Shown: positions 17,932-53,031, counted from the stretch's first letter. The stretch: 64,000 nucleotides of DNA from Ignavibacteriota bacterium (GCA_963849385.1 CAWKHH010000006.1:381394-445393); one strand, 5' to 3'. Numbers and translations are program-made. Notes: generated from the letters alone by a model not told the origin.

Positions 17932-18177
17932 GGCAGCTGCTCCTCTGTGGGACGACGGCAAACGTGGCGTAGTGACTACACAAGATACGGACGGCAGTAC
18001 TGAGGAGCAAGGCGTCGGCTTGCACCTCGGTGTCCATCATCGTACATTATTTTCGCTCCTCCTCTTCCGGACCTTCACAGACACAGGAGGAATGCCCATG
18101 TCCTTCCCAATCTCACGACGGTGAGACTCTTACGATTCCATTAACCGCGTCATACACTATCTGCGTGAGAGGTATCA

Positions 18178-20088
18178 ATGCTTCGGACAGTATGCACGCT
18201 ATCACGCAGGGGTGAGTGCATTCGCCTCTGGTGGCTCGTACTGAGCCTCGCCGTGGCGGCCCCTGTGCTTGCCGCCCAGGACACGACAAGCTATGTCATT
18301 ACCGCAAGCGATGGAGTGCAGCTCGAGGCGACACTGGCGCTTCCCGACAGCGGTGCTCCGGCCACAGGCTTCCCTGCCGTTGTCCTGATCCACGGGTACG
18401 GCGGCAACAAAGACGAGATGGTGTATTTCAGCAACTTTCTTACCTCGCTTGGATACGGGAGCCTCACGTACAGTGTACGCGGACAGGGAAAGTCCGGCGG
18501 TCTTTCGACATTCATGGGCCCGCGTGAGACCCAGGATTTGCTTGAGGTGATTCAATTTCTTCGGCATCTGCCCGGCGTTGACTCCGCTAACCTTGCTGTG
18601 GCGGGCGGATCGCAGGGAGGCATCCATGCCTGGATCGCGGCAACACACAATATGCCCGGGGTCAAGGTGATTGTTTCTCTCGTAGGACCACCATCCTTCT
18701 CACTCGATCTTCTTCCGAATGAATGCATCAAGCAGCAGCTCTACTTTGAGTTGAACCTTGGCGCAGTCCGATACGATCCTCTCAGAGACCGTGTGCGTGA
18801 TTTCGCCGTGCGTGATCAATACGACAGCCTGCTCGCCTTCGCCGGAGTGCGTGATCTCGAAAAGCTGCTGGACAGCGTGCACACGCCGGTCATTCAGAGT
18901 CTGGGCTGGGCGGATGTTCTCTTTCCCGTCAACGGTGGAATTCGAGTAGTCGATCGGCTCACTCCGCGGGGCATTCCTGTGTGGTCCTACTTCGGGACGA
19001 ACGGGCACGGTGAACCGATAAATTTGGGCGAGTATATTTTTGAATTGGATCTCCTGTCATCATGGCTCAACAGGTGGTTAAAGGGTGTGCCGCTTGAACA
19101 TTCCGGCGCCCCCTTCATTGTCTACGCCGATGACAGGCCGGCATGGCCGCACCATGCGTCCATTGGCTGGCCGCCCGAGTCTCACGGGACCCTGCGCCTT
19201 TACTTTTCCGGATCGACGCTGCAAACCACGTATCCGTCGCAGCCGCAGGAGCTGCCCTTTACGCTTGCCTATGATTCAACGTACACTCCGGCGCAGGGCT
19301 GGACCGATGCATACCTCGGGGCGGGTTTCACGAAGGCTTTTCGCTCATCACCTGCACGCGCTTTTTCGGACCCTCTCGCGGATACGCTTGAGATCACCGG
19401 GATTCCGCGTGCGGTTCTGCAGCTTCAATCCGGCGCGGCGCGGTTTCAATCGCACCTGCGCATTTTCGACATCACGGCAGCCGACACCGGGCTTGTGTGG
19501 ACACTGATCACCCGTGGGGCACAGGGGGTGCGCAACAATATTCCGGGCACATCCTTGCAACGCGAGTTCGATTGTCAGGCGCTCTCCCACGTTATTCCGC
19601 CGGGGCACCGTCTCGGTGTCGAGGTGACGTCACTCGACATGTACGACGCGTCAAGGGCACATATCATCCCGTATTTCACTTCATCCATGTCCGCTCTGAT
19701 ATCGTCTCCGGCCAAACCGTCGTACGTGGATCTACCGTTTGTCGGCGGCGTCAGGTTCGTCTCCGTCGGCCCATCGACAGCGGCAGAGCCTTCGGAAATG
19801 ATGCTCAAGCAGAACTACCCCAACCCCTTTAATCCGAGCACAACAATAGGGTTTAGGGTCGGGGGTGCGAAGAATGGGTCCGGGTCTCGGGTCTGGGGTC
19901 TAGTTGGGTGAAGCTCAGCCGTGTATGACGTACTCGGACGCGAGGTGGCGGTGCTCGTGGACGGCTCTCTCGCACCGGGAGACTACAGAGCGGTATTCAA
20001 CGGAACCCGGTACGCAAGCGGAATGTACGTGTGCCGGCTGATCAATGGCACAGGCTCCGCCGAGAGGAAGATGGTGTTGATGAGATAA
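18178..20088 (+). CDS. alpha/beta hydrolase of the CocE/NonD (S15 X-Pro dipeptidyl-peptidase-like) type with T9SS C-terminal sorting domain; interrupted by in-frame TGA at 19909
   Basis: Signal peptide, VLIHGYGGNKDEM and nucleophile elbow GGSQGG. The CTD starts at NYPNPFNPSTTIGFRV (19813). After the TGA the same frame reads AVYDVLGREVAVLVDG...ASGMYVCRLINGTGSAERKMVLMR-stop (20088), which is the rest of a canonical CTD. Confidence 0.7.
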
Positions 20089-20193
20089 GCGCTACTTTAT
20101 GAGGACCAACCGCGCAGTCCGGAGTAAACGATAACTGTATCGATTACCTTAATATCCGGTTTCCAGGCGATTTGTCGAGAGAACTGAGAGGTT

Positions 20194-21660
20194 TTAGCGG
20201 ACATCATAGCGCAGAAATGCTGCAAATGCTCCGGCGAAGGCCAGAAGCGACGCCAGCGCCAGCACCCCCGCATCCACCACCAGGCTCCCTGCTATCCCCC
20301 GCAAAGAACCTTCAGCAGGCGCAAAAACCGGAAGATCCGTGAGATCCAGAGATCCGCTTTCCCGGGGGGCAGAGAATTTTACTCCATGCTGGGAGTCAAA
20401 GGTAATCCTGAAGCCTCCCGCGCCGCCGGTTTCTTTCTGCTTTTTATCAACGTATTGATTGAATCGCGTCCGGTAGTCGCGCATCGCGTCTTCGTATCGC
20501 GCTTTGAGAGCGATCTCGGTCCCCGCCAGCTTCATAGCCGCGAGTTGATATGTGGAGGCAGGAGAAATTCGTGAGAGCGTCATGGCCAGCGCCTCCTGCG
20601 ACTCCTTTTTGTTTCGCAACTCTTCGTTCAGCCGCACGGAGAAAGCATCAACATCCTTCTGTACTTGCTTCCGTTTGGCATCGTCCTCGTCCATCCACGC
20701 CGCCATATGATCGTCGCGATATGTCTCACGCTCACTTTCTGTCAACCCGTGCATCTTCTCTTCCCGCTCACGCCAGGAGGCCTGCATCTGTTGCATATGC
20801 TTTTCCCATTCGTCCTTGGAGAACGCGTCCCGTTGCGCCTCCACCTCGGCAACCGTGGGCACGGGCATCATCTGACCGGCGGCCATGACGCCCATGCGGG
20901 GAACGATGAGCACCATCGTCACCCACACGACGAGCGACACGAGGAATGACACCACTGACCTGCGGGTAAGGCTCGACACAAGTATCCCGAAGATCACAAA
21001 GAACGTGAAGTACAGAAGCGACATCCCCATCAGCAACGAGAGCCGAAGCCAGTGCTCCCCGGTCAGCGGGACATCGTACAACAGGACCAGGAGCACACCG
21101 AGTAGCACCGGAATCACAAGCGGAATAGCCAGACCCGCCCACGAACCGATGAGCTTCGCCAGAATGTAGTGCGCCCGCGGCACCGGGTTGGCGAATGTCA
21201 ATTGCAGGGTGCCCCCTTCCCGTTCTCCGTTGATTGCATCGTAGGTGAAGAGAATGGCAAAGAGCGAGAGGACGACGGTCACAATGAACCCGAAATCAAT
21301 CGATCGGAACAGCGCAAAGAGAGGATCATCGGAGTACGCGCTGTGCCTCAACTTCACCGTTTCGAACTGGCTGACCGGCGACATTCTGCCGATGTCATTC
21401 ATCACCCCGGTCACAAAGACCTGCATCGGATCGGGTTTACGGTACACCCCTGTCGAAAGCCCCATCCATGAGGCCTGTGTCCGGAGGTTCTGATCGGTTA
21501 ACTGCAGTGCCGCCTCGTACCCCTGAACGGCCGCCCGGTATTCCCGGATGCCGATGAACACACTCAACAGAATCAGTACCGACGCCACGGCGAACGTGGC
21601 GGCGAATTTCGGACTGAGCAGTATAGCCTTGAGCTCTTTGATGACCAGTGTTGACAGCAT
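20194..21660 (-). CDS. ABC-2 type transporter permease with large C-terminal coiled-coil/extracytoplasmic insert (DUF3526-like architecture)
   Basis: 488 aa with an N-terminal TM, a loop and a cluster of 5 TM. A charged E/K/R-rich ~170-aa segment and a final TM follow. It is a paralogue of the next gene. Confidence 0.65.
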   Translation of the reverse strand: MLSTLVIKELKAILLSPKFAATFAVASVLILLSVFIGIREYRAAVQGYEAALQLTDQNLRTQASWMGLSTGVYRKPDPMQVFVTGVMNDIGRMSPVSQFETVKLRHSAYSDDPLFALFRSIDFGFIVTVVLSLFAILFTYDAINGEREGGTLQLTFANPVPRAHYILAKLIGSWAGLAIPLVIPVLLGVLLVLLYDVPLTGEHWLRLSLLMGMSLLYFTFFVIFGILVSSLTRRSVVSFLVSLVVWVTMVLIVPRMGVMAAGQMMPVPTVAEVEAQRDAFSKDEWEKHMQQMQASWREREEKMHGLTESERETYRDDHMAAWMDEDDAKRKQVQKDVDAFSVRLNEELRNKKESQEALAMTLSRISPASTYQLAAMKLAGTEIALKARYEDAMRDYRTRFNQYVDKKQKETGGAGGFRITFDSQHGVKFSAPRESGSLDLTDLPVFAPAEGSLRGIAGSLVVDAGVLALASLLAFAGAFAAFLRYDVR

Positions 21661-29349: not shown

Positions 29350-29360
29350 AGGGCGGTGAT

Positions 29361-29385
29361 ATCGTCGTGGGGTATCGTCGTGGGG
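29361..29385. repeat. tandem direct repeat ATCGTCGTGGGG (T) ATCGTCGTGGGG in the ArsR-GH2 intergenic region
   Basis: Two exact 12-mers at 29361-29372 and 29374-29385. Confidence 0.7.
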
Positions 29386-29493
29386 CAGCAGCCGCTTGCT
29401 TTTGGAACGGCGATTCCCGTATATCGAACACTTCCTTTCCAGCAAATGTTCCGGAGTGAATACTACAGTCACCTTCCGACGAAAGGGGCACAA

Positions 29494-31971
29494 ATGGCCA
29501 ATCTTCCTCCATTGCATCGCTCAACTTTCATCTTGTGCGTTCTCTTATTCGCTCTCCTCACCTCCGCCCCGGCCTATGCGGTCACGTCCGGCCAGAATCT
29601 CCGTGAGATGATTCTGCTTGACCCGTCATGGCGTTTCGCTCTGGGTGATGCCAGTTCCATGAAAGGCGATTTTGGCTATGGCAGCGGCTGGCTGTTCGCA
29701 AAAGCAGGCCAGGGGGAGGGCCCTGTCGCGGTCGAATTCAATGACAGCTCCTGGCGCTGCGTGGATCTCCCGCACGATTGGGCCGTGGAACTTGAATTCG
29801 TGAAGTCCGATGAGTGGCCCGTGGAGTCTCACGGCTACAAACCGGTCGGTCGAACCTTCCCGTTGACAACAATCGGATGGTACCGCAAGTCCTTCCCACT
29901 CCCGGAATCCGATCGCGGCAGGCGATTTGAACTGCGGTTCGATGGCGTCTTCCGCAACTGCAATGTGTGGCTCAACGGACACTACCTCGGTAATAATCTC
30001 AGCGGGTACAGTGCCTTCGGATACGATATCACCGACTATGTCCAGTACGGCAAAAAGAACGTGCTCGTTGTGCGCGCAGATGCGAGTCAGAACGAAGGAT
30101 GGTTCTACGAAGGCGCCGGCATCTACCGCCATGCCTGGTTGATCAAACACGCCCCCACCCACATCCCCGAACATGGAACCTTTGTGTGGACAGACCTCGC
30201 CGGCAAGGCTGGTACCGTTCACGTGTCAACGGTGATACGGAATGACAATGTGAGTGCTACTCGCTGCGGACTCGCTCTGTCAGTTCTCGACGCGCAAGGA
30301 ACCGTTGTGGCGTCTGCTGAGGCTACGAGCCGCTCCGTGGGTGCGTTTACCTCCGATTCACTCCTCCAGCACCTCACCATCTCACAACCGCGGCTGTGGG
30401 ACCTTGACCATCCCTATCTCTATCAGCTTGTCTCCGAAGTGAACATTGGGGGGAACGTTGTCGACCGGACGATGACTTCATTCGGCATACGGTCTATCCG
30501 GTTCGACAAAGACAAGGGGTTCTATCTCAATGGCAAGCGCGTTGAACTTCTGGGCGTCTGCTGTCATCAGGATCACGCCGGTGTCGGCGCGGCACTTCCC
30601 GACCGCCTGCAATCGTACCGCATCGAACGTCTTAAAGAGATGGGTGTGAATGCCTACCGCACCAGCCACAACCCTCCCACGCCGGAACTCCTCGATGCCT
30701 GCGATCGACTCGGTATGCTGGTGATGGATGAGAACCGGCTCCTGGGGAGTTCTCCCGAACTCATGAGCCAGTTCGAGCGTCTTGTGCTTCGCGACAGGAA
30801 CCATCCCTCGGTGATTCTCTGGTCGCTCGGCAACGAAGAATGGGTCGTTCAGGACACCGAGCCGGCAAAGAACATTGCCCTCTCCCTGATGAGGCGCATG
30901 AAAGAACTCGACCCGACGCGCACGTGTACCTATGCCGCAAACAATGGCAACCAATTTGAAGGAATCAACAGTGTGATGCCGGTCCGGGGCTTCAATTACT
31001 TTTCCGTCATGGATATTGATAAATACCGGCGAGACCATCCGGATCAGATCCTACTGGGAAGCGAGGAAGCAAGCACCGTCTGCACGCGGGGCATCTTTGC
31101 CAATGACACGGTACGTGGCTACGTAAGCGATTATGACGTCAACGCGACAAGTTGGGGCGCCACCGCGGAACGGTGGTGGAAATTCTATGCTGAACGGGAA
31201 TGGCTTGCAGGCGCGTTTGTATGGACCGGCTTTGACTATCGGGGCGAACCAACCCCCTACAAATGGCCTTGCATCAACTCACACTTCGGCATCATGGACG
31301 TCTGTGGTTTCCCCAAGAACAATTTCTACTATTATCAAGCGTGGTGGACACAGAAGGACGTGCTGCACCTGGCGCCGCACTGGAATTGGCAGGGCCAGGA
31401 AGGAAAGACAATCGACATCTGGTGTCAGAGTAACTGCGATAGCGTAGAACTCCGGTCGAATGGCAAGAGCCTTGGCCGGAAGACGATGGAGCGCAATGGT
31501 CATCTGGAGTGGAAGGTTGCATACGCCCCCGGGAAGATCGAGGCACGCGGATGGAAGGGCGGCAGAATACTCACGACGTTCATCGAAACGACCGGGAATG
31601 CCACCACCCTCCGTCTGACCCCGGATCGCAGAGCGATTACCGCCGACGGAGAAGACTTATGCATGATCACCGTCACCACAACGGATGCTCGGGGACGTGA
31701 AGTGCCGGTTTCGGACAACCTGGTTCGTTTTGCACTCACCGGAAACGGAAGAATCCTGGGCGTGGGCAATGGCGATCCGAGCAGTCATGAGCCTGACAAA
31801 TGTGCAGAAGGAGAGTGGCAGCGGAGACTCTTCAACGGCCGGTGTCAGATTATTGTGCAAGCTGGCCGCAACCCAGGCACGCTGCAACTGCGGGCCTTGT
31901 CTGACGGATTGCAGCCTGCAGAAATCGGCGTGGGAATGCTGGCAGGTGCAGTGCGGCCGTTTGTCGAGTAG
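29494..31971 (+). CDS. secreted glycoside hydrolase family 2 (beta-galactosidase/beta-glucuronidase-like)
   Basis: Signal peptide MANLPPLHRSTFILCVLLFALLTSAPAYA at the internal ATG 29494. GH2 blocks NAYRTSHNPP and RNHPSVILWSLGNEE. Confidence 0.85.
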   Translation: MANLPPLHRSTFILCVLLFALLTSAPAYAVTSGQNLREMILLDPSWRFALGDASSMKGDFGYGSGWLFAKAGQGEGPVAVEFNDSSWRCVDLPHDWAVELEFVKSDEWPVESHGYKPVGRTFPLTTIGWYRKSFPLPESDRGRRFELRFDGVFRNCNVWLNGHYLGNNLSGYSAFGYDITDYVQYGKKNVLVVRADASQNEGWFYEGAGIYRHAWLIKHAPTHIPEHGTFVWTDLAGKAGTVHVSTVIRNDNVSATRCGLALSVLDAQGTVVASAEATSRSVGAFTSDSLLQHLTISQPRLWDLDHPYLYQLVSEVNIGGNVVDRTMTSFGIRSIRFDKDKGFYLNGKRVELLGVCCHQDHAGVGAALPDRLQSYRIERLKEMGVNAYRTSHNPPTPELLDACDRLGMLVMDENRLLGSSPELMSQFERLVLRDRNHPSVILWSLGNEEWVVQDTEPAKNIALSLMRRMKELDPTRTCTYAANNGNQFEGINSVMPVRGFNYFSVMDIDKYRRDHPDQILLGSEEASTVCTRGIFANDTVRGYVSDYDVNATSWGATAERWWKFYAEREWLAGAFVWTGFDYRGEPTPYKWPCINSHFGIMDVCGFPKNNFYYYQAWWTQKDVLHLAPHWNWQGQEGKTIDIWCQSNCDSVELRSNGKSLGRKTMERNGHLEWKVAYAPGKIEARGWKGGRILTTFIETTGNATTLRLTPDRRAITADGEDLCMITVTTTDARGREVPVSDNLVRFALTGNGRILGVGNGDPSSHEPDKCAEGEWQRRLFNGRCQIIVQAGRNPGTLQLRALSDGLQPAEIGVGMLAGAVRPFVE

Positions 31972-33230: not shown

Positions 33231-34091
33231 ATGCTCGAACTCCAGACAAATCTCAAGCGCAAGATCGAACTCCTTGGCCTCGCCCTCGATAATGCGCCGT
33301 GTTATCGCGACGTCGATTTCGCAGCCATGTTTCGACGGGATGTCCCGACAATCAAGCGTGACATGAAGGAACTCCGCGGCGAGGGGATTGACATTCACTC
33401 AGAGCGGAGCAAGGGGATTCAGGTCAGCAGTGACATTGACACAGGCCTGCTTCGGCGGCTGATTATCCAATATATGGGCCTCTGCACGGCAGAGGGGGGA
33501 GTTGACAGGGCAACCCGCCTCATGGTCAAGAAAATCAAGGCGAAATCCCTCAGCAATCTCGTGAGACTTCAACAATGCATCGAGAGATCGAAGATTATCC
33601 GGATTGACTACCAGAAAGATGGCCGTCGCAGGGAAAAGGACCGCGAGCTGCACCCCCTGCTCATCTTCAGCAGCGATGGCTACTGGCGTTTGCTGGCTCT
33701 CCATCAAGGAGAAATGAAGCAGTATCATCTGAACAAACTGCTCGATGTCCGTCCGACCGACAGAACATTCAAAAGGCCGCCTCAGGAAGACATCGAGAAA
33801 GTATTCCGTTATTCCTTCCGTAGCTGGATCGGCCCTGAAGAACATCACATCACACTGCGGCTTGATCGCATCTGGGCCGAGCGGATTCAACCCCAACAGC
33901 TGCTGGAGACACAGGCAATTACGGCGGAAGGTGATGGTTCGGTCACGTTTGAGGCGACAGTCAATTCGCTCAGCGAGGTCGCAGGTTGGGTGGTCAGCCG
34001 CGGGAAGGGTGTCACCGTGGTGGAACCCGAGGCATTGCGGAACATGGTGATCGACACGGCACGTGGAGTGCTCGACAACTACCCGGCCTGA
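33231..34091 (+). CDS. WYL-domain transcriptional regulator (HTH + WYL + WCX-like)
   Basis: Start at the internal ATG (MLELQTNLKRK). HTH region DVPTIKRDMKELRGEGIDI, WYL core IDYQKDGRRREKDRELHPLLIFSSDGYWRLLALH, and C-terminal GVTVVEPEALRNMV. Confidence 0.65.
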   Translation: MLELQTNLKRKIELLGLALDNAPCYRDVDFAAMFRRDVPTIKRDMKELRGEGIDIHSERSKGIQVSSDIDTGLLRRLIIQYMGLCTAEGGVDRATRLMVKKIKAKSLSNLVRLQQCIERSKIIRIDYQKDGRRREKDRELHPLLIFSSDGYWRLLALHQGEMKQYHLNKLLDVRPTDRTFKRPPQEDIEKVFRYSFRSWIGPEEHHITLRLDRIWAERIQPQQLLETQAITAEGDGSVTFEATVNSLSEVAGWVVSRGKGVTVVEPEALRNMVIDTARGVLDNYPA

Positions 34092-35413
34092 ACCACCTGC
34101 GGTGCGGTCGGTTCGGTGAGAAGCTGCTGGTGAAACTGAATACCCATGCTCGTGAGTTGTGCGAACGGCATTTCCCCTCCGGCGCAGACGAACACCTGTT
34201 CGTTTCTCAACTCGATTTTCCCCTCCGGCGTTGCCAGCACCACATGGTGATTCTGAATCTCCTGAACGACGGAGTTCATGACGAGCTTCAGGCGTTTGCT
34301 CCGCACCTGCTCGCGCATGTGCACGGCGTTGCGTTCTTTGATCTTCGAAAACTCCGCCTGCCGATAAGAGAGGGTCACTCGATTGGCCTTCTGGATGGCA
34401 AGAGCGATTGCTGCCTCCACGGCGGAGTCCCCACCGCCGACAACAAGCAGGTCCATGTCCGTATACGACGCGGCATCAATTAACTGGTACACCACCTTCG
34501 GGAGATCTTCTCCGGGCACTCCGAGGCGGCGCGGAATCCCGCGTCTTCCCATGGCCAGGATGATTGCCCCCGTCAGGTATTCGTCTTTGGATGAACGGAC
34601 ACGGAACATGCCATCCACCGATCGGACTTCCACCATCTTTTCATCAGTCTTTACTTCGAGCCCGGTGGTTCGGATGATTTTCTCCCAGGTCTCCAGCAGC
34701 TGTTCTTTGCTCGCTTCCGTCAACCGCAATCTCCCCCAGACCGGAAGATCCACCGGAGAGGTGAGCACGATCTTTCTCCGGGGATAGCGGAGAATAGTCC
34801 CCCCGATTCCCCCTTGTTCGAGAATGGCATAGCGCAAATTCAGACTTACCGCGGTCAATCCGGCCGATAACCCCGCGGGTCCGGCCCCCACCACGAGAAC
34901 ATCCAGCGCCCCCGGAGTTGCTTTGGTCCGTGACGCTACGGCTTCGACCGCACGACGACCCTGAAGGACTGCGTTCTTGATCAAACCCATTCCCCCCAGT
35001 TCCCCTGCGATGAAGATTCCTGGCACTGAAGTTTCATACTCCTCAGTGAGGACAGGCAGATGCGCACTGCGGCCCGGAGGCGCCATGAGAAGCGTGATCG
35101 CTCCAACGGGACATGCTTCTGCGCACAGACCGTGCCCCACGCACTTCGCTCCATGAACAAGGATGGCCTTCCCTCCAATCAGGCCAAGAACGCCGTCCTC
35201 CGGACATGCTGCGACACAACTGCCACACCCTATGCAGGCAATACCGTCAATATGCGGATGTATTGATGTCGCTGCCTGCAGACCGGTTATCTGCATTTCT
35301 TCGAACTGAGCCCTGGCCTTGCGTTCTCGCCGTTTGGCACGCAAGGCATAGGGGACCACCACGGCTGTGATAAGAATGGCGGCAATGAGAGTGGTGAGCA
35401 ACGAGTCAGACAT
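34079..35413 (-). CDS. membrane-anchored 2x[4Fe-4S] ferredoxin domain fused to thioredoxin-reductase-like FAD/NAD(P) oxidoreductase
   Basis: N-terminal TM LLTTLIAAILITAVVVPYAL. Cys clusters CIGCGSCVAACPE and CVGHGLCAEACP. Dinucleotide folds VLVVGAGPAGLSAG and LLVVGGGDSAVEAA. Confidence 0.75.
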   Translation of the reverse strand: MSDSLLTTLIAAILITAVVVPYALRAKRRERKARAQFEEMQITGLQAATSIHPHIDGIACIGCGSCVAACPEDGVLGLIGGKAILVHGAKCVGHGLCAEACPVGAITLLMAPPGRSAHLPVLTEEYETSVPGIFIAGELGGMGLIKNAVLQGRRAVEAVASRTKATPGALDVLVVGAGPAGLSAGLTAVSLNLRYAILEQGGIGGTILRYPRRKIVLTSPVDLPVWGRLRLTEASKEQLLETWEKIIRTTGLEVKTDEKMVEVRSVDGMFRVRSSKDEYLTGAIILAMGRRGIPRRLGVPGEDLPKVVYQLIDAASYTDMDLLVVGGGDSAVEAAIALAIQKANRVTLSYRQAEFSKIKERNAVHMREQVRSKRLKLVMNSVVQEIQNHHVVLATPEGKIELRNEQVFVCAGGEMPFAQLTSMGIQFHQQLLTEPTAPQVVQAG

Positions 35414-35427
35414 AGTGTCTCTGAGTG

Positions 35428-37035
35428 TTAGAAATGGAATCCGGCTTCCGCAAAAACTCTATAAAGGAGACGATCACTCTCCCGTACGCGATCGGCAAAC
35501 AGCGTGACATACCACCCGCGGGTCACATTCCAGCTTGCACTCCCGGTGAAGCGTTGATATGGTGACACGTGCGTCACCGGTCATTCAGACCGAGCGGAGT
35601 GAAGGCATACTGATTCCATCGAAGTGAAAGCACCACAGACCCCTGTCGGAGCATACTCCAGATCGCCGGTGATATCGTTCCCGTCGGTGTAGGGGCTTTT
35701 GACACGCATGTACTGTCCGCCGAGCGAAATGTCCGAACCACCGATATCCGACAGCCGGACGCCGGACCCGCCGGAATATCCCACCGGCAAGCCTCCGGCT
35801 GGTGCGCGGTATCCGCCCAGAAGCGAGAGTGCAACGTTCAGCGGGAGCCGGAAAAACACTGACCCCCGACAGCCCTGACGGAGATCCCTGTCACGCAACG
35901 AGTCTGCGAGAGATTTTTCGGTTTCCAGAAATTCAACCCGCCGGGTCGCATCATATCCCAGGTTGGCGGTGAGCCAATCAAGAGGCTGATAGTTCATTGT
36001 GATGAACGTGTTGGTCAGCCGGAAGTCCGCTTGGCGCACATCACCATCTTTGCGGTGCAGGTCTATTTCCGTACTCTGATAGCAGGAACAATGTCGACGA
36101 GAGCGCCGCAGAGTTCTGCACGTACAGGAAATCACGATCCAGAATCCCGCGATACAGCTGCTGGCCGTAGGCAATGGTGGTGCTGCTACGAAGGGAAGTT
36201 CCCTCCGCCCACGCAACGTTGAGAAATCCGGCGATCTTCTGGGTCTGGCTGTCGAACCCGAAGTCCGGTAGTCAGGTTGAAAACCACCGAGAACTCCCGT
36301 CGTCAGTGTCCCCGTTCGGACCATGACCTGAGCACCATCCACAAGCCCCAGCCCTCCGACATATGCGGATGAAATACGCCCCACACTGAACCCGTACCAT
36401 TGACGCGGGTCATCCATTCCGAGAGCCAAATCATACAGACGCAGTGTAGTCCCTTCGGTCGACCACGATCCGACGGTTGATCCGAGGGATCCATCGACTC
36501 TGCCGTGAACACTGAACGTGAGGCTCGTGCCTGCAATCGGATCCGAATAGAGGCGAAGGAGGAGTGAAGGCCGGGAGAGCGTCGATGCTCCCCCAAACTC
36601 GCCCCCTCCCGCGTACTGCAGGCCGATCCGGCCGTGAAGCGAGACTTCTGTGAAGCATTCACTCGAGAAGGTGGTACCAAAGCCCTTTCAACGGTATCGT
36701 GCGGGACATCCCGCGGACCGTCGTGCGGGCAAGACGCCGGCAAAGAACACCGTATCCCCGACCGAGGCGGAATCCCCAGGTGTTACGACCTGCGCAGAGC
36801 TCGAACTGTTTGAGACAGCGGTAATGACCAGCCGTCCTGCAGCGATCCGACGACGATAGATTGTTCCTGTGTCGCCCGGTGCAAGGGATCGATTCTTCCC
36901 TCCGTCCAGGTACACGGTCTGTGACGTGATGTACGATATCGTCACCACAAACGACTGTGCCGTCCTCTCCTGTGCTTGTCCGACACCGGAACAAGCCGGC
37001 AGTGTCAGCAAGAGCATTCCTCCGGGTCTCCTCAT
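35428..37035 (-). pseudogene. outer-membrane beta-barrel protein (~535 aa if repaired), ATGA-coupled to the upstream cytochrome; at least 5 frame disruptions
   Basis: ATG 37035 overlaps the repaired cytochrome stop (GGAGGATGA). Signal peptide MRRPGGMLLLTLPACSG. Native-looking strand segments switch frame: ...GGFQPDY / GFDSQTQKIAGFLNVAWAEGTSLRSSTTIAYGQQLY... / YQSTEIDLHRKDGDVRQADFRLTNTFITMNY... / VVLSLRWNQYAFTPLGLND / ...WYVTLFADRVRESDRLLYRVFAEAGFHF-TAA (35428). The terminal aromatic F is OMP-like. Confidence 0.6.
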
Positions 37036-38282
37036 CCTCCGGTCCCTCTTGGGTGACAGTTGTAGCATGCCTGGCTGTCGTACGTGTAGCCGTTTCTTCC
37101 CGGAGTGCTTCGAGTCCATGCTTGCCTGGTTATGCTCATGACAGGTCAAACATGAAAAGACCGCAAAGTTTGTTGCACTGGTGTGACAATCGGAACAGGC
37201 ATTCCACCTTCCCGGTGCATGGCTGGATCCTGCAGAAATCGGGAAGAATCCTGAGTGGTTAAAGGTTGAGGGACGCCACGCGGATGTCGAATGACATGTG
37301 ACACAGGTGGTTGGAAACGAGCCCGACGAATGTACCGGATTCAAGGCGCCGGTATAGTCCGGTTGATGGCATGCATAGCAATCTGTCGGCGTTCCCTTGA
37401 AACGATTCCCAACATGGCATGACGCACAGGTCGCTGTCGTGTGCGCGCCAGCCAGGGCGAATCCCGTTTGTGCATGCGCAAAGGAGCTGCTCCATGACGC
37501 GGCGTTCGCAGAATGGCAGTCTATACACGTTGTCGGAAATCCCGCCGCCGCATGCGCAGGATTCTTGGTGGCCGTATAGTCGTTCTGATGGCAGCTGTTA
37601 CAATCGGTCGGAGTGCCTTTGAAACGGTTCCCGGCATGGCATGACGCGCAGGTCGCCGCCGCGTGCGCTCCGGCGAGTATGAACCCGGTCTGCGCATGGT
37701 TAAAAGAGCCGCCCCATGTGGTTGCCTGGACCGAATGACAGGACGCGCACTCGGTGCTGATACCCGATGCCGCGTGGGGAGGCGCGACCGCGGCCTGATA
37801 GTCCTTTGCGTGACAGCTGTAGCATTCGATGGACAACCCCACATATTGATGCTTCTGCTCTTGAATGTGGCACTGCTCGCACGAAGCGTTCAGATGCCCA
37901 CCGGTGAGAGGGAAACGAGTTTGTGCGTGCCGGCGGGGCATGTCAGCTACGAGCCACGACTGCGGGGTATGACATCGATCGCAGGCGAGTCCCAGCTCCC
38001 CCCGATGGATATCCGCATGACAGGAGGCACATCGCACAGGAGCTTCGGAGAACGTCAGCGTCGTGTGACATTGACGGCATGGAACGGTGAGATGTTGTCC
38101 GGTCAGGCAAACGACGTTTTTGCATGGTCAAACTTGATAGCCGCGAGTTCTATTTCCCAGGATTCAGTCGAGTGGCACGTGGTACACGGCACCGAGATTT
38201 TTCCGTGCGGACTGTCCTGGCACACAAGCACCCCGGCATTTCCCAGAAGAACCGCAACGACGATCCGGAAGCGGTGGTTCAT
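37032..38282 (-). CDS. multihaem c-type cytochrome, 16 CXXCH sites (two apparent frame changes)
   Basis: ATG 38282 has GGAGG 8 nt upstream and begins MNHRFRIVVAVLLGNAGVLVC. CTTCH lies in ORF 38103..38624 and CRQCH plus 13 CXXCH in the frame of ORF 36688..38037. A shift near 37090 gives the C-terminus GYTYDSQACYNCHPRGTGG-TGA. Confidence 0.8.
37261..37704 (-). repeat. tandem 222-nt (74-aa) duplication encoding a tri-haem module inside the 16-haem cytochrome
   Basis: FNHAQTGFILAGAHAAATCASCHAGNRFKGTPTDCNSCHQNDYTATKNPAHAAAGFPTTCIDCHS... is followed directly by FAHAQTGFALAGAHTTATCASCHVGNRFKGTPTDCYACHQPDYTGALNPVHSSGSFPTTCVTCHS... Confidence 0.8.
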
Positions 38283-38298
38283 CGGTGTGGTCCTCCGT

Positions 38299-39967
38299 TC
38301 ATTTGCAGCAGCGCTGTCCGACGGTGTGGCGGCACCATGACACCCCTCGCACGTCAACGGAATTCCCTGGAATTGCCACGCGTCGACACCACGGGTGCTG
38401 TGCGAGGACGTTGTGGCATGCAGCGCATGCAAGGCGCACATGTTTTCCATCAAGGGGGAACCGGGTTTGCTCGTGACGAAACCGGACATCCGTCCAGCCG
38501 ACAGTGGTGTGGCAAGCCACGCACGCCGGTATCCAGCGGTCAAAGCGGCCCTGGTGCGGATCCTTGTGACAATCCACACACTGCGGGGGAGCTGTCCGTG
38601 TGAACTGTTGGACCTGTTTTCCATTTACAGTGTTGCGCGCATGGCACTTGTCACATGGTACGGCCTCGTGCCCTCCGTCGAGCGCCATTCGGGTCGTGTT
38701 GTGCATTACAGCGGTATACGTCGCGGGGACAAACCCGGTCTCCAGGTGGCAAGCAGCACAATCGCGCGGGTTGGTCCCGCCTGCGAACTGCCCCGCATGG
38801 GGATCCGCATGGCAACTCGCGCATCGTTCGTAGCCGGCGAGATTCACCGGCACTGTTGGTGCGCCACTTCGTTTCCCGTGACACTCCATACATTTCAAAG
38901 AAAGGTGCTTTCCCCGCAACGCAAAGTGCGTCGTCCCATGGTCGTAATTCTTCATTGGTCCTTCGCGCCAGCCTGCCTCAACGTGACATCGTTCGCACCC
39001 TGTCTGAGGTTGGCGTGCAGTGAACTGGCCATTGTGCGGGTCAGTGTGGCAGTCTGCGCACTTCTGGAATTTCTCAAATCGGAGCGCGTGGCCACCGGCC
39101 TTTGCGCCGCCGCCTAAGTGGCATGCAACACATTCCTGGCGGGCATGGAGCCCCCGCAGGGGAAATCTTGTCGTCGCATGGTTGAATTTCGACTCCGCCT
39201 GTTTCCATCCCGCCGTGGAGTGGCAAGACTCACAGGTTCCTTGAAGTTTTCCCCGGTGCGGGTCCGTATGACAGTCAATGCACCGCTCGAAGGCAATCCC
39301 CCTGAAGCGTACGACTGCAGGATCTGAGGTAGACGGCTTATGACAGCGCGTACATGGCACATCACCATGCCGCCCGGTAAGGCGAAATCGTGCGTTATCG
39401 TGCGAGAAGCCGGTGACGGGCTTCCACCGTTCTGTGGTGTGGCACGTTCGACACTCCGAAGTGAACTGTCCGTGATGGGCATCGTTATGACAGGCCACGC
39501 ACGACGTACTGAGCCCGAGGTATGTGCCGTGACGCAGCAGCGCCTGATTTGCGCGGACATCCGCTGCTTGTACAAACTGGGCCTTGTGGCACGATGTGCA
39601 CTCCTGGTTCGCGTGTTTTCCGTCAAGGGCAAACCCGGTCGCCTTCTGATGATCGTACCCGGCCTGGTTGAATCGTGTGATGCTGAACGAACGACCATGG
39701 TGTTCTTTATGACATTCCACACACTCATGACCGGCCAGTTTCGCATGGTACCCCTTGTTGGCGGTGATTCGCGATTTGAGTTCCTGATGACAGTCGAGGC
39801 ATTTGTCATTGGATATCGCCTTGCCGATCGCATGGCAGCGGGTACAATGTGACATGCCCTCCAGCTCCGCATGAGCTGCAGAAAGCTCTCCGGGGGAGAT
39901 CTGTGCCAAACGCCGCCCCGCACAGTGCTGCGCCAGTGAAAAGAATCCCTGCAATGACCTTGCGCAT
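38299..39967 (-). CDS. multihaem c-type cytochrome, 19-20 CXXCH sites (frame changes at both ends)
   Basis: 19 CXXCH in ORF 38299..39954. Signal peptide MRKVIAGILFTGAALCG starts at ATG 39967 in another frame, 2 nt after the upstream stop. The last ~35 aa of the ORF look non-native, while the adjoining frame carries ...GIPLTCEGCHGAATPSD (a 20th site). Confidence 0.8.
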
Positions 39968-39969
39968 TG

Positions 39970-40848
39970 TCAGAAGGCCCACCGGTATCCGAATGCGATT
40001 GCTACGCCAACATGCACAAACAGAATGACAAACATGATGATGCTGAACGGAACATGAATGACATGCCAGTAATGAAAGAACCGGCGAATCTGCTCGAGGA
40101 GGAGGATACGGCGGTGGAGAACGTGCCGCGCATGAAATGCCGAGGCGAGGCCGTGCTCGGCGTCATGACGCAAGCCGAGGGCACGCACACTCGAGCTGAT
40201 CGCCCTCGAGCGGAACAGGTCATCGACGATGAGGAACCAGAGAACCTTGACGAGACCCGCTCCCCGCATGCCCGCGCGCGCATCCGAGAGGTTGTCGATG
40301 CGCTCAATCGTTTCCGCGCTCAAGGCGAAATCGAACATCAGTCGCGCAGTCATGCGACCGAGCTCTTTTTCAAGCTCGGCAACCGTCAACTCGTGGCCCT
40401 GGATCCCCCGCGGAATCTGTACGTACAAATAGCGTCCAACGATTCCGCTCAAGACAATGGCCGTCATGCTCCAGAAGCTCACTGCAACCAAACCGCCGAA
40501 TTTGAATGTCGTATGGTACAGAACGAGTATGGGTCCGGTAAGGCAGAGGAAGATATGAAACTCGAGAAATGCCGGAAGCTTGCCGAGGCCCGAAAGGATG
40601 CGAAGTCGCTTACGGGAAGAATACATCGTCACTCCCGTAATGATCATGAGCGACCCCACAATACCATATCCGTGGCTGGTTAAGCCGGAGGGTTTCAGTT
40701 CGTCATATTGCAGGTGAAAAGGTCGTTCGGAAAGGGGGGTTGTGTAGTAATCGGCGCCATGAAGTCCGAGCACAATGGTCATCGAAGCTGCAACACACGT
40801 CAATATGATGATATAGAGTTTGTGGCCCTGCCATTTCACGTTGCTCAC
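39970..40848 (-). CDS. polytopic membrane protein with two His-x13-His helices (candidate di-haem b-type cytochrome)
   Basis: 292 aa with about 5-6 TM. One helix reads EFHIFLCLTGPILVLYHT and another HVIHVPFSIIMFVILFVHVG, each with His at i and i+14. It lies immediately upstream of the multihaem genes. Confidence 0.5.
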   Translation of the reverse strand: MSNVKWQGHKLYIIILTCVAASMTIVLGLHGADYYTTPLSERPFHLQYDELKPSGLTSHGYGIVGSLMIITGVTMYSSRKRLRILSGLGKLPAFLEFHIFLCLTGPILVLYHTTFKFGGLVAVSFWSMTAIVLSGIVGRYLYVQIPRGIQGHELTVAELEKELGRMTARLMFDFALSAETIERIDNLSDARAGMRGAGLVKVLWFLIVDDLFRSRAISSSVRALGLRHDAEHGLASAFHARHVLHRRILLLEQIRRFFHYWHVIHVPFSIIMFVILFVHVGVAIAFGYRWAF

Positions 40849-40862
40849 TCCTGTGTGGCCTG

Positions 40863-41333
40863 TTACCCTTCCCGCCTATAATGAATAGGCAAAAGGTCCA
40901 GAAGGTAGTTGATGGTCACTGTATCGCCGGGATGAAGCAGAGGACGCGGGTCGCTGAGGATTTCCCTGGACCCGTCAACCGCATTGCGGGCCGATACGAT
41001 GACCTGTCGCGTGAGCGGGTAGTCGCCGTGCGACACCTGCCGGAGAATCTCCGCCGCAACATACATCTTGTACACCGAAGCCGGATAGATGAAATTCTCC
41101 GGATGAACGCCTCCGATCCGCGGTTTCTGACGGGCAAGATCTATCACCGCCAGAGATATCTGTTCACTCCCATCCTCCCCCACATCGAATGTACGGTCGA
41201 GGTCTACCGAACGAACGATGCTCAGGAGACTGTCGGAAAGGTCCGTGTCAACCTCATAGTAGTCCGGGATCTGTACTGACTGGGCCATGCCGGGCATGGG
41301 GCAGACGAGCAGAAGCATGAGCAGATATTTCAT
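40863..41333 (-). CDS. N-terminal fragment of a class-A beta-lactamase-like serine hydrolase (truncated)
   Basis: Signal peptide and S-x-x-K motif PASVYKMYVAAEIL. At 156 aa it ends before the SDN/KTG regions would be expected, and the next gene starts 14 nt later. Confidence 0.45.
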   Translation of the reverse strand: MKYLLMLLLVCPMPGMAQSVQIPDYYEVDTDLSDSLLSIVRSVDLDRTFDVGEDGSEQISLAVIDLARQKPRIGGVHPENFIYPASVYKMYVAAEILRQVSHGDYPLTRQVIVSARNAVDGSREILSDPRPLLHPGDTVTINYLLDLLPIHYRREG

Positions 41334-50533: not shown

Positions 50534-53031
50534 TCAGAATCGCACGTTTAATCCCACAGCCGGATACAACGGAAGGAGTTTGAGGTCCCTCATGGTGACG
50601 GTCCATTTGCGCCGCAGATCCGAGCCCGGGTTCACCGTCCATTCATACGGGTCCAGCAACCCGTAGGCATTCATCATGCGGAGGGTAAGCTGGCAGTGCA
50701 CACCCCAGAGCGCGATTCGCCTCCGTATGTTGATTTCCATGCGCTGGAATCCGGGACTTCTGCTTCCATTCGGGTCAATGGCGTTGGCGGCGTAGGAGGC
50801 GCGGACATCCACTCCCTTAGAACCGTTGAAACTGAATGTCAGTGGTGATGCTGTCGGCGTCGACGGCGGCTCGGAAGTAAGGACACACACGCCACCCACG
50901 GCCCATTCTTCTCCGGGTGAGTACGTGACCCAGAGTTCCACTTCATGCCTGCGATCAAAGGCCGGAGCGAAAGGCTCGCCGTTGTTTACGCCCGCAAAGG
51001 TATCGGAGAGCCAACCGAGCGTGTACCGGAGCGAGCCGGTAAGCACTCCGAATCGTTTGCGGACTGAAATACTCCCCCCGTAGGCGCGTTCAGCGCCATA
51101 CAGTATGCTGTTCATAAGAGAAGATGATCTACTGTCTCTGTGAAACCACTTCGAATCCATGATAGTCACGGGTGGTACGATGGTACGCTTCTATGGAAGC
51201 GACGTAGGCTTCTGCGGCCCAGGCCCTTTCAACCCCAGCAGTGATCTGCAGTGATGACGTGGGTTTCACTTCGGAGCCGGAGGGATACCAAAACGCCGTA
51301 GGATAGAAGTAGAAGACTCCCGTAGTCCGGTACGGATGAATGAATTGATTGATCGCGGTCAATGAGGCGTACACCCGGGTATTGTCGTCCACAGCGGCAA
51401 GGATGGAAAACCGTGGATCGACCGCAGAGAGTGAACCATTGCTTCCCATGAATGAAGTCAATCGGGCCCCCAGTTCGGCAGTTACGCTGGCTGCAAGCCG
51501 CCATTGGTCCTGCAGATACACAGCCAGCTCCCACGATGAGAATCCCCTGAAGCAAGAATGGGGCGTTGGAGAGCGAGAATTCGCTGATGGCCGCGCTGAT
51601 CCCGTGTCCGGTCAGTTCCACACCCCCACGGATAGTATGGTCTCTGTCAAGAAAGTGCTCCGCGTGAGCACGAACACTGAGATCCTCAACCCTGTAGTCC
51701 GACGAGAGCATTCCGGGCGACGGTGGAGTCACCTGACCGGTCAGGATGTGATCCATCGTAAGATCATATCGGGAATACGCAATAGAACCATACAGGAACA
51801 ACGATGACGAGCCAATGCCAAACCACCGGGCTTGAAGATTCTTGTTCGCCCAGGAGAACGAATTGTCGAGGCTTCCCCCGCCTCCCTCCGCGCTGTTCTC
51901 ATAGGTATCACGCCCCAGATATCCACTCAGGAACAGCCGGCTGCTTGATCGCCAGCCGGTAGTTCGCTTTGCCGATTACCTCGTAGGATCCCGACCGGCT
52001 CATTGACGGCATCCGGCTCAAGCAAAGGCACCGCCGGGTCCACATACGCCCGCCGGCCGGAAATAAGAAACGTCGATTCCTCGCTCAAGGGTCCCTCAAT
52101 GAACAGCCGGGCCCCAAGCGAACCGACTCCCGCCATTCCTGTGACTCGTTCCTTCGTCCCTTCGCGAATGGACAGATCCAGGAGTCCGCCGATCCGTCCT
52201 CCATAGTACGGAGAGAGTCCGTTGACGGCCGGCTCAACATCGTTCAGCACATCCGGCTGAAATGTCGCAAGGATGCCGCCGAAGTGGGATGGGTTGTAGA
52301 TGCGGGCGCCGTCGAGCAGATACTGTGTCTGGTCCGACGGAACAGAGCGAATGTACATCCCCCGCACGAGTCCCCCCGCCGGCGTCGATTCGGTCCGATG
52401 TCCTTCCACGGTGAATTCCTGCATGGCAATATCTTCCTGACGGAGGGAGATATCCACACGCACGGTCCCCTGTCCCGAAATGTGCAACGGACAACGATTG
52501 ACGGCATATCCAATTGCCCGAACCACCAGCAGATACTCTCCGCTCTCAACATCCGGGAGGGAAAAGAATCCGAAGGAATTCGTTGGACACCACCGCACCA
52601 TTTCGAGTATTGAGTCCTTCGCGTACTTCTGCAACAGCACCGTCGCCCCGGCAACCCACCCGCCGGTCAATGAATCCGAGAGAACTCCACTTACCGTGGC
52701 GACTGCATGCATCTTCTCGTCCGGACGCTGGCGAAGAATGTACTGGTTCCCCATCCGTATCCACATAAGCCCGGTTCCGCTCAGAAGCTGTTCCAACGCA
52801 TCCACGGCAGAGCAGGAATTGCACCGGGATGTCACTTTCACACCGCTGACATCGCTGTCAAAGTACACTATCGAAATGCCGTACCAACGCATGAGGGAAT
52901 CAAGCGCAACACGCAGGTCTCCGTTCTCGAAACGGAAGGACCGTTGTCGGTCCGGACTCCTGCGCGTCGCCGGATGAGGGAAGCACGGCGAGGAGCAGGA
53001 GACTAATATAGAGTATAGCTGCTATTCTCAT
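50534..53031 (-). pseudogene. TonB-dependent receptor with N-terminal STN signalling domain and CarboxypepD_reg domain; at least 6 frame disruptions
   Basis: ATG 53031 gives the signal peptide MRIAAILYISLLLLAVLPSSG. In the next frame comes the STN block SFRFENGDLRVALDSLMRWYGISIVYFDSDV..., followed by the plug (ORF 51927..52892). Barrel pieces follow in ORFs 51229..51801, 51129..51521 and 50534..51169, ending ...LYPAVGLNVRF. Confidence 0.7.

Follow-up and report, generated by a model that had tools for sequence, protein, structure and literature searches.

Does a string of five genes in an Ignavibacteriota bacterium encode a complete path along which electrons could pass from the cytoplasm to the cell surface, and has this path been kept by the lineage in which it was noticed? 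The question is raised by a stretch of 64,000 nucleotides (GCA_963849385.1, CAWKHH010000006.1:381394-445393), which is called here the window and from whose first letter all window coordinates are counted. Five tightly coupled genes run on its minus strand from 40848 to 34079 and encode an inner-membrane protein (MEM), two exported multihaem c-type cytochromes (cyt1 and cyt2), an outer-membrane protein (OMP) and a membrane-anchored Fe-S flavoprotein (FP); an initial annotation, made from the sequence alone, had proposed them as an electron conduit of the porin-cytochrome type. The explanation that fits the locus best, and that we hold to be fairly probable as a whole, is that they represent a conserved five-component operon of Ignavibacteriota, Kryptoniota and Bacteroidales, predicted to lead electrons all the way from the cytoplasm to the surface. 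In its best reading, the operon works like MtrCAB or the porin-cytochrome (Pcc) systems of Geobacter, yet it is not a member of the Mtr family, and would be a NAD(P)H-fed conduit of the porin-cytochrome type.

Organisation and haem content of the operon

The first gene, MEM (39970..40848, minus strand), is an intact open reading frame (ORF) for an inner-membrane protein of 292 amino acids (aa). The start codon of cyt1 (38279..39967, minus strand), ATG at 39967, lies 2 nt past the MEM stop; that of cyt2 (37032..38282, minus strand), ATG at 38282, overlaps the cyt1 stop as ATGA and has a GGAGG 9 nt upstream. A second ATGA joins the cyt2 stop codon (37032-37034) to the start of OMP (35428..37035, minus strand), ATG at 37035; finally, FP (34079..35413, minus strand), an intact ORF of 444 aa, begins with ATG at 35413, 14 nt beyond the OMP stop. 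The frames of the three central genes are broken; after repair by frameshift-aware alignment of intact orthologues to the window DNA, they encode proteins of 561 aa (cyt1), 416 aa (cyt2) and about 535 aa (OMP).

The number of CXXCH motifs in the six-frame translation of the 64 kb is exactly 36; none lies outside 37032-39967 or on the plus strand, and such a clustering of haem motifs is far beyond chance. Nineteen are in the frame of the ORF 38299-39954 of cyt1, with a CEGCH in the adjoining frame; repaired cyt1 contains 20 CXXCH and 49 His, while repaired cyt2, which ends in ...CYNCHPRGTGG, contains 16 CXXCH and 35 His. The gene string, the coordinates, the junctions and the motif counts given by the initial annotation, including its 36 sites in two adjacent cytochromes, were correct on re-check, and the frameshifts that it had suspected are indeed present in the sequence, three in cyt1, two in cyt2 and seven in OMP.

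A scan for promoters and terminators gave nothing exceeding the shuffled background. The region upstream of MEM has itself been altered: a gene of the Beta-lactamase2 family (40863-41333, minus strand) is truncated to 156 aa, its orthologue in the related locus L004 having 312 aa, and about 725 bp are missing from the window at this gene, including the stretch upstream of MEM. Since MEM starts only 14 nt after the beta-lactamase remnant, its own promoter region may be gone. The same gene is wholly absent from the related loci L001, L090 and L009.

Conservation of the five-gene set

Related loci were annotated by MEM and OMP profiles, a sequence search for FP and CXXCH counts, and the synteny counts are restricted to the 51 loci with at least 9 kb of sequence downstream. 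Cytochromes together with an OMP homologue are found in 49 of the 51, and FP is also present in 48 of those 49. The order is cytochromes-OMP-FP in 35 loci and FP-cytochromes-OMP in six, which belong to Bacteroidales; in seven, further cytochromes follow OMP, with FP before or after them (COFC/COCF, by the initials of the three elements), and one has cytochromes and OMP only. At the loci examined, the OMP gene always stands directly after that of a cytochrome, and its start codon often overlaps the stop of the preceding gene. The conserved neighbourhood on which the initial annotation had made its proposal depend is thus borne out. Among 71 related loci, 59 encode a first cytochrome with exactly 20 CXXCH; the slot after it is variable and is filled by one to three cytochromes with 10-58 haems.

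In a scan of one genome per GTDB species, MEM relatives were present in 431 genomes; the best 80 of these 431 are metagenome-assembled genomes (MAGs) of Ignavibacteriae/Ignavibacteriota, Kryptoniota and Bacteroidales (Prolixibacteraceae, Draconibacterium, Marinilabiliaceae), the closest among the 80 being the fen MAG Ignavibacteriae bacterium fen_1255, in agreement with the FCB-like host that had been presumed. Protein searches found the nearest assemblies at 95% (Logan) and 87% (JGI).

Two relatives, L009 (67% identity) and L090 (83%), carry MEM, a 20-haem and a 22-haem cytochrome, a protein of 527-530 aa with no family assignment and FP, all intact. L007 (55%) combines MEM with a tetratricopeptide-repeat (TPR) protein, three cytochromes of 20, 31 and 10 haems, an OMP of 534 aa and FP; after FP, at 19444-20876 of that locus, lies the gene for a fusion between a multihaem cytochrome and a cytochrome b domain of the Ni_hydr_CYTB family. 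This fusion, which we take to resemble CbcL of Geobacter, may provide a second, quinol-linked entry to the conduit. Four other loci, L029, L034, L046 and L047 among them, also have a further multihaem cytochrome after FP.

Only the two lineages closest to the window deviate from the set of cytochromes and OMP. L004 (95% MEM identity), which was assembled independently from three sequencing runs, contains MEM, an intact 561-aa cyt1, a remnant of 55 aa and FP; a deletion of 2.7 kb, corresponding to window positions 38192-35485, has removed cyt2 and OMP. In L001 and L010 (87% MEM identity) FP follows MEM directly, the counterpart of window 39965-35424 being absent. Because the outgroups L090 and L009 are complete, these losses represent two independent events. 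MEM and FP remain adjacent, intact and under purifying selection where cytochromes and OMP are all gone, as in L001 and L010; the retention of the inner pair while the outer parts are deleted or broken suggests that MEM and FP have a function of their own.

A 418-aa protein from another lineage, P0166, was considered as a possible MEM-FP fusion and rejected: in it, residues 1-229 of MEM are continued by the C-terminal third of a Pyr_redox domain like that of FP, which has the appearance of a chimera left by a deletion. The protein may further indicate that the locus is prone to internal deletions.

The outer-membrane protein and the cytochromes

Behind its signal peptide OMP has a small beta domain at the N-terminus, which a linker connects to a predicted 22-strand barrel; its terminal ...AGFHF, with an aromatic last residue, ends at 35431. 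The repaired protein is 68% identical to the intact 527-aa orthologue of L090. The intact L009 orthologue, P0121, was modelled by AlphaFold2 (pLDDT 72.7 for the whole chain, about 80 for the barrel); 22 strands are seen in residues 132-529 and a beta domain in residues 27-100, with a disordered linker between them, which supports the barrel that the initial annotation had read from amphipathic strands. P0121 has no Pfam or NCBIfam match, even at lax E-values, and the OMP profile found no match among PDB sequences; a Foldseek search with the model returned only generic barrels (FimD, Occ porins, AlgE, Cir) with a TM-score of about 0.4, and MtrB is not within its top 50 matches. As for the beta domain ahead of the barrel (residues 27-100 in P0121), it is periplasmic, and a distant OMP relative, P0151, matches FlgT_C with 27.1 bits versus a threshold of 27. 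This domain could either plug the barrel or offer a cytochrome a place to dock.

Both cytochromes carry Sec signal peptides and a His count sufficient for bis-His ligation, and by their sequences they are assigned to c7/c3-type units; the Pfam matches of cyt1 are Cytochrome_C7, Cytochrom_c3_2 and Cytochrom_CIII. Repaired cyt1 is 86% identical to the intact 561-aa orthologue of L004, and cyt2 is 62-67% identical to its L090 orthologue, being devoid of one internal repeat that is present in L009 and L090. Neither of them has a sequence relative of solved structure in the PDB at E <= 0.01, and a close kinship with characterised soluble reductases, which the initial annotation had raised as a danger to its proposal, was not found among solved structures.

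The inner-membrane pair

Hydrophobicity and the positive-inside rule predict for MEM five transmembrane (TM) helices, with a cytoplasmic helical insert of about 115 aa between the fourth and the fifth. The family is very large, with more than 4754 matches in a 90%-clustered database and, at E<=1e-3, 3418 of the representatives of 1.84 billion 50%-identity clusters; its profile found no match among PDB sequences. Across sets of 42 close and 91 diverse sequences, the latter going down to 26% identity with the window protein, three histidines (H112, H265 and H279) never vary, and two more (H98 and H262) hardly do. These histidines form two H-x13-H pairs, H98/H112 in TM3 and H265 (with H262)/H279 in TM5, which could hold one haem near each membrane face. 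Among the 91 diverse relatives, weak matches, judged by E-value alone, were obtained to DUF4405 (62/91, best 1.5e-6), Ferric_reduct (36/91, best 1.5e-4) and Ni_hydr_CYTB (23/91, best 1.1e-4), three families that we take to belong to one clan of two-haem membrane cytochromes. Binding of haem b has been demonstrated, by expression and a pyridine haemochrome assay, for a DUF4405 protein, for which transmembrane electron transport was proposed (PMC11334425). MEM is therefore a candidate divergent di-haem cytochrome b, and the His-paired membrane protein of the initial annotation finds its counterpart in the conserved pairs and in the superfamily matches. The ratio of nonsynonymous to synonymous substitution rates (dN/dS) of MEM versus its L004 orthologue is 0.105.

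FP, with a dN/dS of 0.14 versus L004, starts with an N-terminal TM anchor, and the basic stretch RAKRRERKAR that directly follows it places the catalytic part in the cytoplasm. It matches Pyr_redox_3 (4e-43) and Fer4_10 (1e-10), and the closest solved structures are those of YpdA/Bdr (7a76 and 7a7b, 1e-25 to 1e-28); two Rossmann motifs of GxGxxG/A type are found in 62 of 63 orthologues. By sequence, FP is thus assigned a YpdA/thioredoxin-reductase-like fold for FAD and NAD(P)H with two Fe-S motifs; the FAD and the two clusters of this TM-anchored oxidoreductase had already been named in the initial annotation. One Fe-S motif is a canonical CxxCxxCxxxCP; in the second, CxxHxxCxxxCP (residues 91-102), His replaces the second Cys, a feature kept in 48 of the 63 orthologues and suggestive of a His-ligated [4Fe-4S] or of a [3Fe-4S] cluster. 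However, FP does not match YpdA, the bacillithiol disulfide reductase, at the equivalog level: it remains below TIGR04018 (169 bits, cut-off 339.9), and YpdA lacks the TM anchor and the ferredoxin domain, both of which FP carries.

Relationship to known electron-transfer systems

The Pcc class is described as an outer-membrane protein resembling porins, with 18-22 predicted strands, beside multihaem cytochromes, the periplasmic ones carrying 5-14 haems and a further one belonging to the outer membrane (Shi et al. 2014, PMC4245776). The present family agrees with this description in its porin, since the orthologue model has 22 strands and OMP adjoins cytochromes in 49/51 loci, and it shares with the Geobacter system (OmbB-OmaB-OmcB) the porin-like OMP encoded beside multihaem cytochromes. 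It differs in that its cytochromes are larger, 20 and 16-58 haems as compared with 5-14 for the periplasmic ones of Pcc; moreover, no outer-membrane lipoprotein cytochrome is recognisable, and the operon has its own inner-membrane module, consisting of the putative di-haem b protein and the NAD(P)H Fe-S flavoprotein.

In Ignavibacterium album, the genes IALB_1837-1840 encode a cytochrome, a 14-haem cytochrome of 400 aa, a porin and a further cytochrome, and these proteins are only distantly related to other Pcc proteins (PMC4245776). Their order matches that of the relative L017, where a 20-haem and a 14-haem cytochrome precede OMP and a 23-haem cytochrome follows it; likened by this order, the I. 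album genes probably belong to the same family. A "Geobacter-like Pcc" has also been reported in Ignavibacteriales MAGs (PMC7399161, PMC6137239). The remark of the initial annotation that conduits are poorly characterised in the FCB group is fair, but porin-cytochrome clusters of I. album, Melioribacter and Ignavibacteriales MAGs were already published (PMC4245776, PMC7399161, PMC6137239). The di-haem b protein and the Fe-S flavoprotein go unmentioned in the published Pcc and Mtr descriptions examined; papers on Melioribacter respiration (PMC5492636, PMC3534657) and a preprint on multihaem cytochromes in peat do not describe the cluster, and a literature search for Kryptonia or Prolixibacteraceae together with multihaem cytochromes found nothing. 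The family is only partly known, and its inner-membrane module appears undescribed.

With MtrCAB, MtoAB and PioAB the operon shares a cytochrome gene directly before a dedicated barrel gene, the preceding cytochrome being in many relatives a 10-haem protein of 270-310 aa, and the logic of electron transfer from periplasm to surface through the barrel. In contrast, MtrB has 26-28 strands and the OMP orthologue model 22; the operon contains no CymA-type quinol dehydrogenase, and no match to MtrB_PioB, DmsE/MtrA or MtrC/OmcA lies above cut-off. The cyt1 orthologue reaches 44.5 bits on the MtrA/DmsE family TIGR03508 (cut-off 192.2), and the 10-haem cytochromes that precede OMP in four relatives have at most 19 bits on MtrA/DmsE; the score on the MtrC/OmcA family TIGR03507 is 18.9 bits (cut-off 209), and that on Mtrc-MtrF_II-IV_dom is 29.9 versus a threshold of 30, with no single stretch passing alone. 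Since family profiles, PDB sequences and Foldseek all failed to connect the proteins with the Mtr family, the impression gained by eye that none of them resembles MtrA, MtrB or MtrC was sound.

The inner-membrane pair finds its nearest parallels elsewhere. With NOX and ferric reductases, MsrQ-Fre and DUF4405 proteins it shares two pairs of histidines on two helices (H-x13-H twice in MEM), potentially binding two b haems, and also the pairing of a membrane protein with a cytoplasmic NAD(P)H flavoprotein. However, MEM has five predicted helices and a large cytoplasmic insert in place of six helices; the flavoprotein of the operon is of the YpdA/thioredoxin-reductase type with two Fe-S clusters and has no FNR-type domain; and the acceptor would be a multihaem cytochrome here, in place of O2, Fe(III) chelates or MsrP. 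The Hmc and Tmc complexes of Desulfovibrio combine in one operon, as this locus does, a periplasmic multihaem cytochrome of c3 type, a membrane cytochrome b and a cytoplasmic Fe-S protein, but no homologues of HmcB-F are found here, an outer-membrane barrel is added and the cytoplasmic partner is a flavoprotein; on the HmcA family the cytochromes have only weak partial matches, with 44 bits versus a cut-off of 400.

A proposed path from cytoplasm to surface

One component for each layer of the envelope, together with translational coupling, leads us to read the operon as a single electron path. On the cytoplasmic side FP would draw electrons from NAD(P)H through FAD and its two Fe-S clusters and pass them to MEM, whose two bis-His b haems, one near each membrane face, would carry them across. 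The periplasmic 20-haem cytochrome, with its c7/c3-type repeats, would accept them from MEM and hand them to the variable cytochrome, which has 16 haems in the window; the latter, located in or at the dedicated 22-strand barrel, would then deliver them to an acceptor outside the cell, for instance Fe(III) or humic material. The analysis established which genes are present, how they are ordered and coupled, that the set is conserved, which domains and invariant histidines its proteins have and that an orthologue models as a barrel; we infer which way electrons flow, that NAD(P)H donates them, that MEM and FP are in contact and that a cytochrome is threaded through the barrel. The conduit suggested by the initial annotation can thus be upheld as a candidate, backed by the conserved unit and by the barrel model, while its function is a prediction and the copy on which it was based contains 12 frame breaks.

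Several observations weigh against this scheme. The AlphaFold2 model of MEM has helices that agree with the sequence reading, but its confidence is low (pLDDT 62), and a fold search with it gave no match, only noise; window MEM itself has no Pfam or NCBIfam match, DUF4405 appearing at E = 6. The cytochromes have no conserved lipobox and no type IX secretion system (T9SS) tail, hence no signal for surface exposure, and a Cys in the signal peptide is not conserved among orthologues. If electrons leave directly from NAD(P)H, membrane potential is dissipated; this is odd for respiration, and a fermentative electron sink fits better. MEM and FP must also have a task independent of the conduit, given that genomes of the L001 type keep them alone. 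Finally, the closest relatives have unambiguous deletions (of cyt2 and OMP in L004, of all three central genes in L001 and L010), with complete outgroups, and the adjacent beta-lactamase-like gene has been truncated by a true deletion, two facts that also count in favour of a conduit that is dead or dying in the window lineage.

Frame breaks: assembly errors or decay

Twelve single-base events interrupt cyt1, cyt2 and OMP over 4.5 kb. In cyt1 there are three single-base insertions (39904, 38406/7 and 38312, minus strand); in cyt2 (minus strand) frameshift-aware alignment placed a -1 event at about 38107 and a +1 event at about 37101; in OMP (minus strand) seven events lie at about 36696, 36643, 36260, 36082, 35643, 35582 and 35548. 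MEM and FP are intact, and the comparable flanking genes (those for KdpD, KdpE, LigB, a WYL regulator, URO-D, a radical-SAM protein, a 606-aa protein, an S9 peptidase and an enolase-family protein) show frame-preserving indels only. The indels of each broken gene sum to zero modulo 3 (cyt1 +3, cyt2 0, OMP +3), with a chance of about 1 in 27, so that the ATGA overlaps retain their ancestral frame relations.

A second patch of the same kind was found 11 kb away, in a gene for a TonB-dependent receptor (50537-52800, minus strand), which is split over three frames by four single-base insertions relative to L001, at 52006, 51948, 51543 and 51147, none of them in a homopolymer. In the two patches together, 13 of the 16 events are +1 insertions; seven insertions could be placed by DNA alignment and lie outside homopolymer runs, and no long run was seen near the other nine events. 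Indels of bacterial genomes are usually biased towards deletions and driven by slippage; +1 insertions outside repeats resemble uncorrected consensus errors in patches of low coverage or strain variation.

The conduit may be dead or dying in the window lineage, the alternative being that the breaks are assembly errors. That cyt1, cyt2 and OMP are recent pseudogenes, MEM and FP being kept for another job, is a serious contender to which we give somewhat less than even credence. Besides the deletions in the relatives and next to the operon, it explains why 12 breaks fall within 4.5 kb and none in adjoining MEM and FP or in the flanking genes compared, and why they are confined to genes that relatives have deleted. 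However, these 4.5 kb of supposed pseudogene contain no nonsense codon after repair in any of the three genes, and the lesions are dominated by +1 insertions, the DNA-placed ones lying outside homopolymers, with the same type recurring in an unrelated gene 11 kb away. Moreover, the dN/dS of cyt1 versus L004 is only 0.18, within the range of the intact neighbours (0.03-0.19), and OMP shows no rate acceleration: the repaired protein is 61.5% identical to the L009 orthologue and the intact L090 copy 61.3%, an equal divergence that leaves no detectable period of relaxed constraint. We therefore lean, with modest confidence, towards uncorrected consensus errors in assembly patches as the origin of the 12 breaks.

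Two further possibilities were rejected: long-standing pseudogenes, with which the low dN/dS, the lack of stop codons and the equal rates of divergence do not agree, and programmed frameshifting, since the 12 sites have no common motif and nearly all of cyt1 would be out of frame. Mis-assembled or freshly broken, the window copy is in either case a weaker exemplar of the family, for which the intact loci L090 and L009 are better starting points.

Electron donor, direction of flow and role of the barrel

The main rival to an NAD(P)H-fed path concerns the entry of electrons. MEM could be a menaquinol dehydrogenase that feeds the periplasmic cytochromes, like the cytochrome b parts of CbcL, HydC or FdnI, and FP an NAD(P)H:quinone reductase anchored on it, or an accessory; we regard this as possible, though doubtful. 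A flavoprotein with Fe-S clusters and a di-haem cytochrome b is the layout of di-haem succinate:quinone reductases, which lends it some support, as do the weak Ni_hydr_CYTB matches in 23/91 MEM family members and the occurrence of MEM and FP alone in L001-type genomes, as would be possible for a quinone-linked enzyme. Nevertheless, matches to DUF4405 (62/91) and Ferric_reduct (36/91) are commoner, no quinone site is recognisable in the MEM sequence, and the separate cytochrome b/c fusion after FP in L007 would be redundant; this fusion, a candidate quinol oxidase, hints that MEM and FP are not the quinol entry. Both its presence in L007 and the retention of the pair in L001 support a MEM-FP partnership that does not pass through quinone.

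If electrons do enter directly from NAD(P)H, the operon could be a quinone-independent line from the cytoplasm to the surface, made of a two-component NOX-like entry, a 20-haem wire and a second multihaem protein in a 22-strand barrel, and would then represent a new class of extracellular electron transfer (EET), widespread among Ignavibacteriota, Kryptoniota and Bacteroidales from soils, peat and groundwater and serving as a fermentative sink in place of a respiratory chain. This fuller version is put forward only tentatively.

An inward flow, in which a donor outside the cell or in the periplasm, for example Fe(II), reduced humics or a partner cell, would supply a cytoplasmic Fe-S flavoprotein, as in Hmc and Tmc of sulfate reducers, seems improbable. 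It can appeal to the Hmc-like three layers of periplasmic multihaem cytochrome, membrane cytochrome b and cytoplasmic Fe-S protein, to the weak partial HmcA matches of the cytochromes and to a published account in which porin-cytochrome systems run in either direction (PMC5566968). Against it, reduction of NAD(P)+ by Fe(II) or humics would be uphill and the membrane potential opposes the entry of electrons; carriers are mostly predicted organotrophs of soils, fens and groundwater, judging from record titles, and no module for carbon fixation or energy input is linked to the operon.

That OMP is an ordinary porin or export channel which merely shares the operon, with cytochromes that reduce a soluble substrate in the periplasm or store electrons for it, is very improbable: it would fit the generic barrels returned by Foldseek and the lack of a surface-localisation signal in both cytochromes, but the OMP family is found only beside multihaem cytochromes (49/51 loci), directly after a cytochrome gene and in no other recognisable context in the loci examined, and 36 to more than 70 haems per operon are far more than known periplasmic reductases need.

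Rearrangement elsewhere in the window

Further from the operon, window 16792-20103 corresponds to L001 16755-20027 and encodes an S9 peptidase with a T9SS tail and an enolase-family protein. In L001 these genes stand just past those for URO-D and a SpoIIE-domain protein, while in the window they are about 12 kb from URO-D; the region between URO-D and the S9 peptidase has been rearranged or has gained DNA, including a gene for a GH2 glycosidase (29356-31971).

Significance

Anoxic soils, peat, sediments and anode biofilms harbour abundant Ignavibacteria and Bacteroidales, and we know of no established route by which these reach insoluble electron acceptors. OMP and MEM have no Pfam or NCBIfam assignment, and neither they nor the cytochromes resemble solved structures by sequence. 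As a compact five-gene unit, the operon may also lend itself to equipping other hosts with such an electron path. How genes were lost in the clade of the window is informative in itself, the inner pair being retained while the outer parts are deleted or broken. Should the module draw directly on NAD(P)H, it would represent a third design for crossing the whole envelope, beside the quinol-fed Mtr and Pcc systems and the flavin-based transfer of Gram-positive bacteria.

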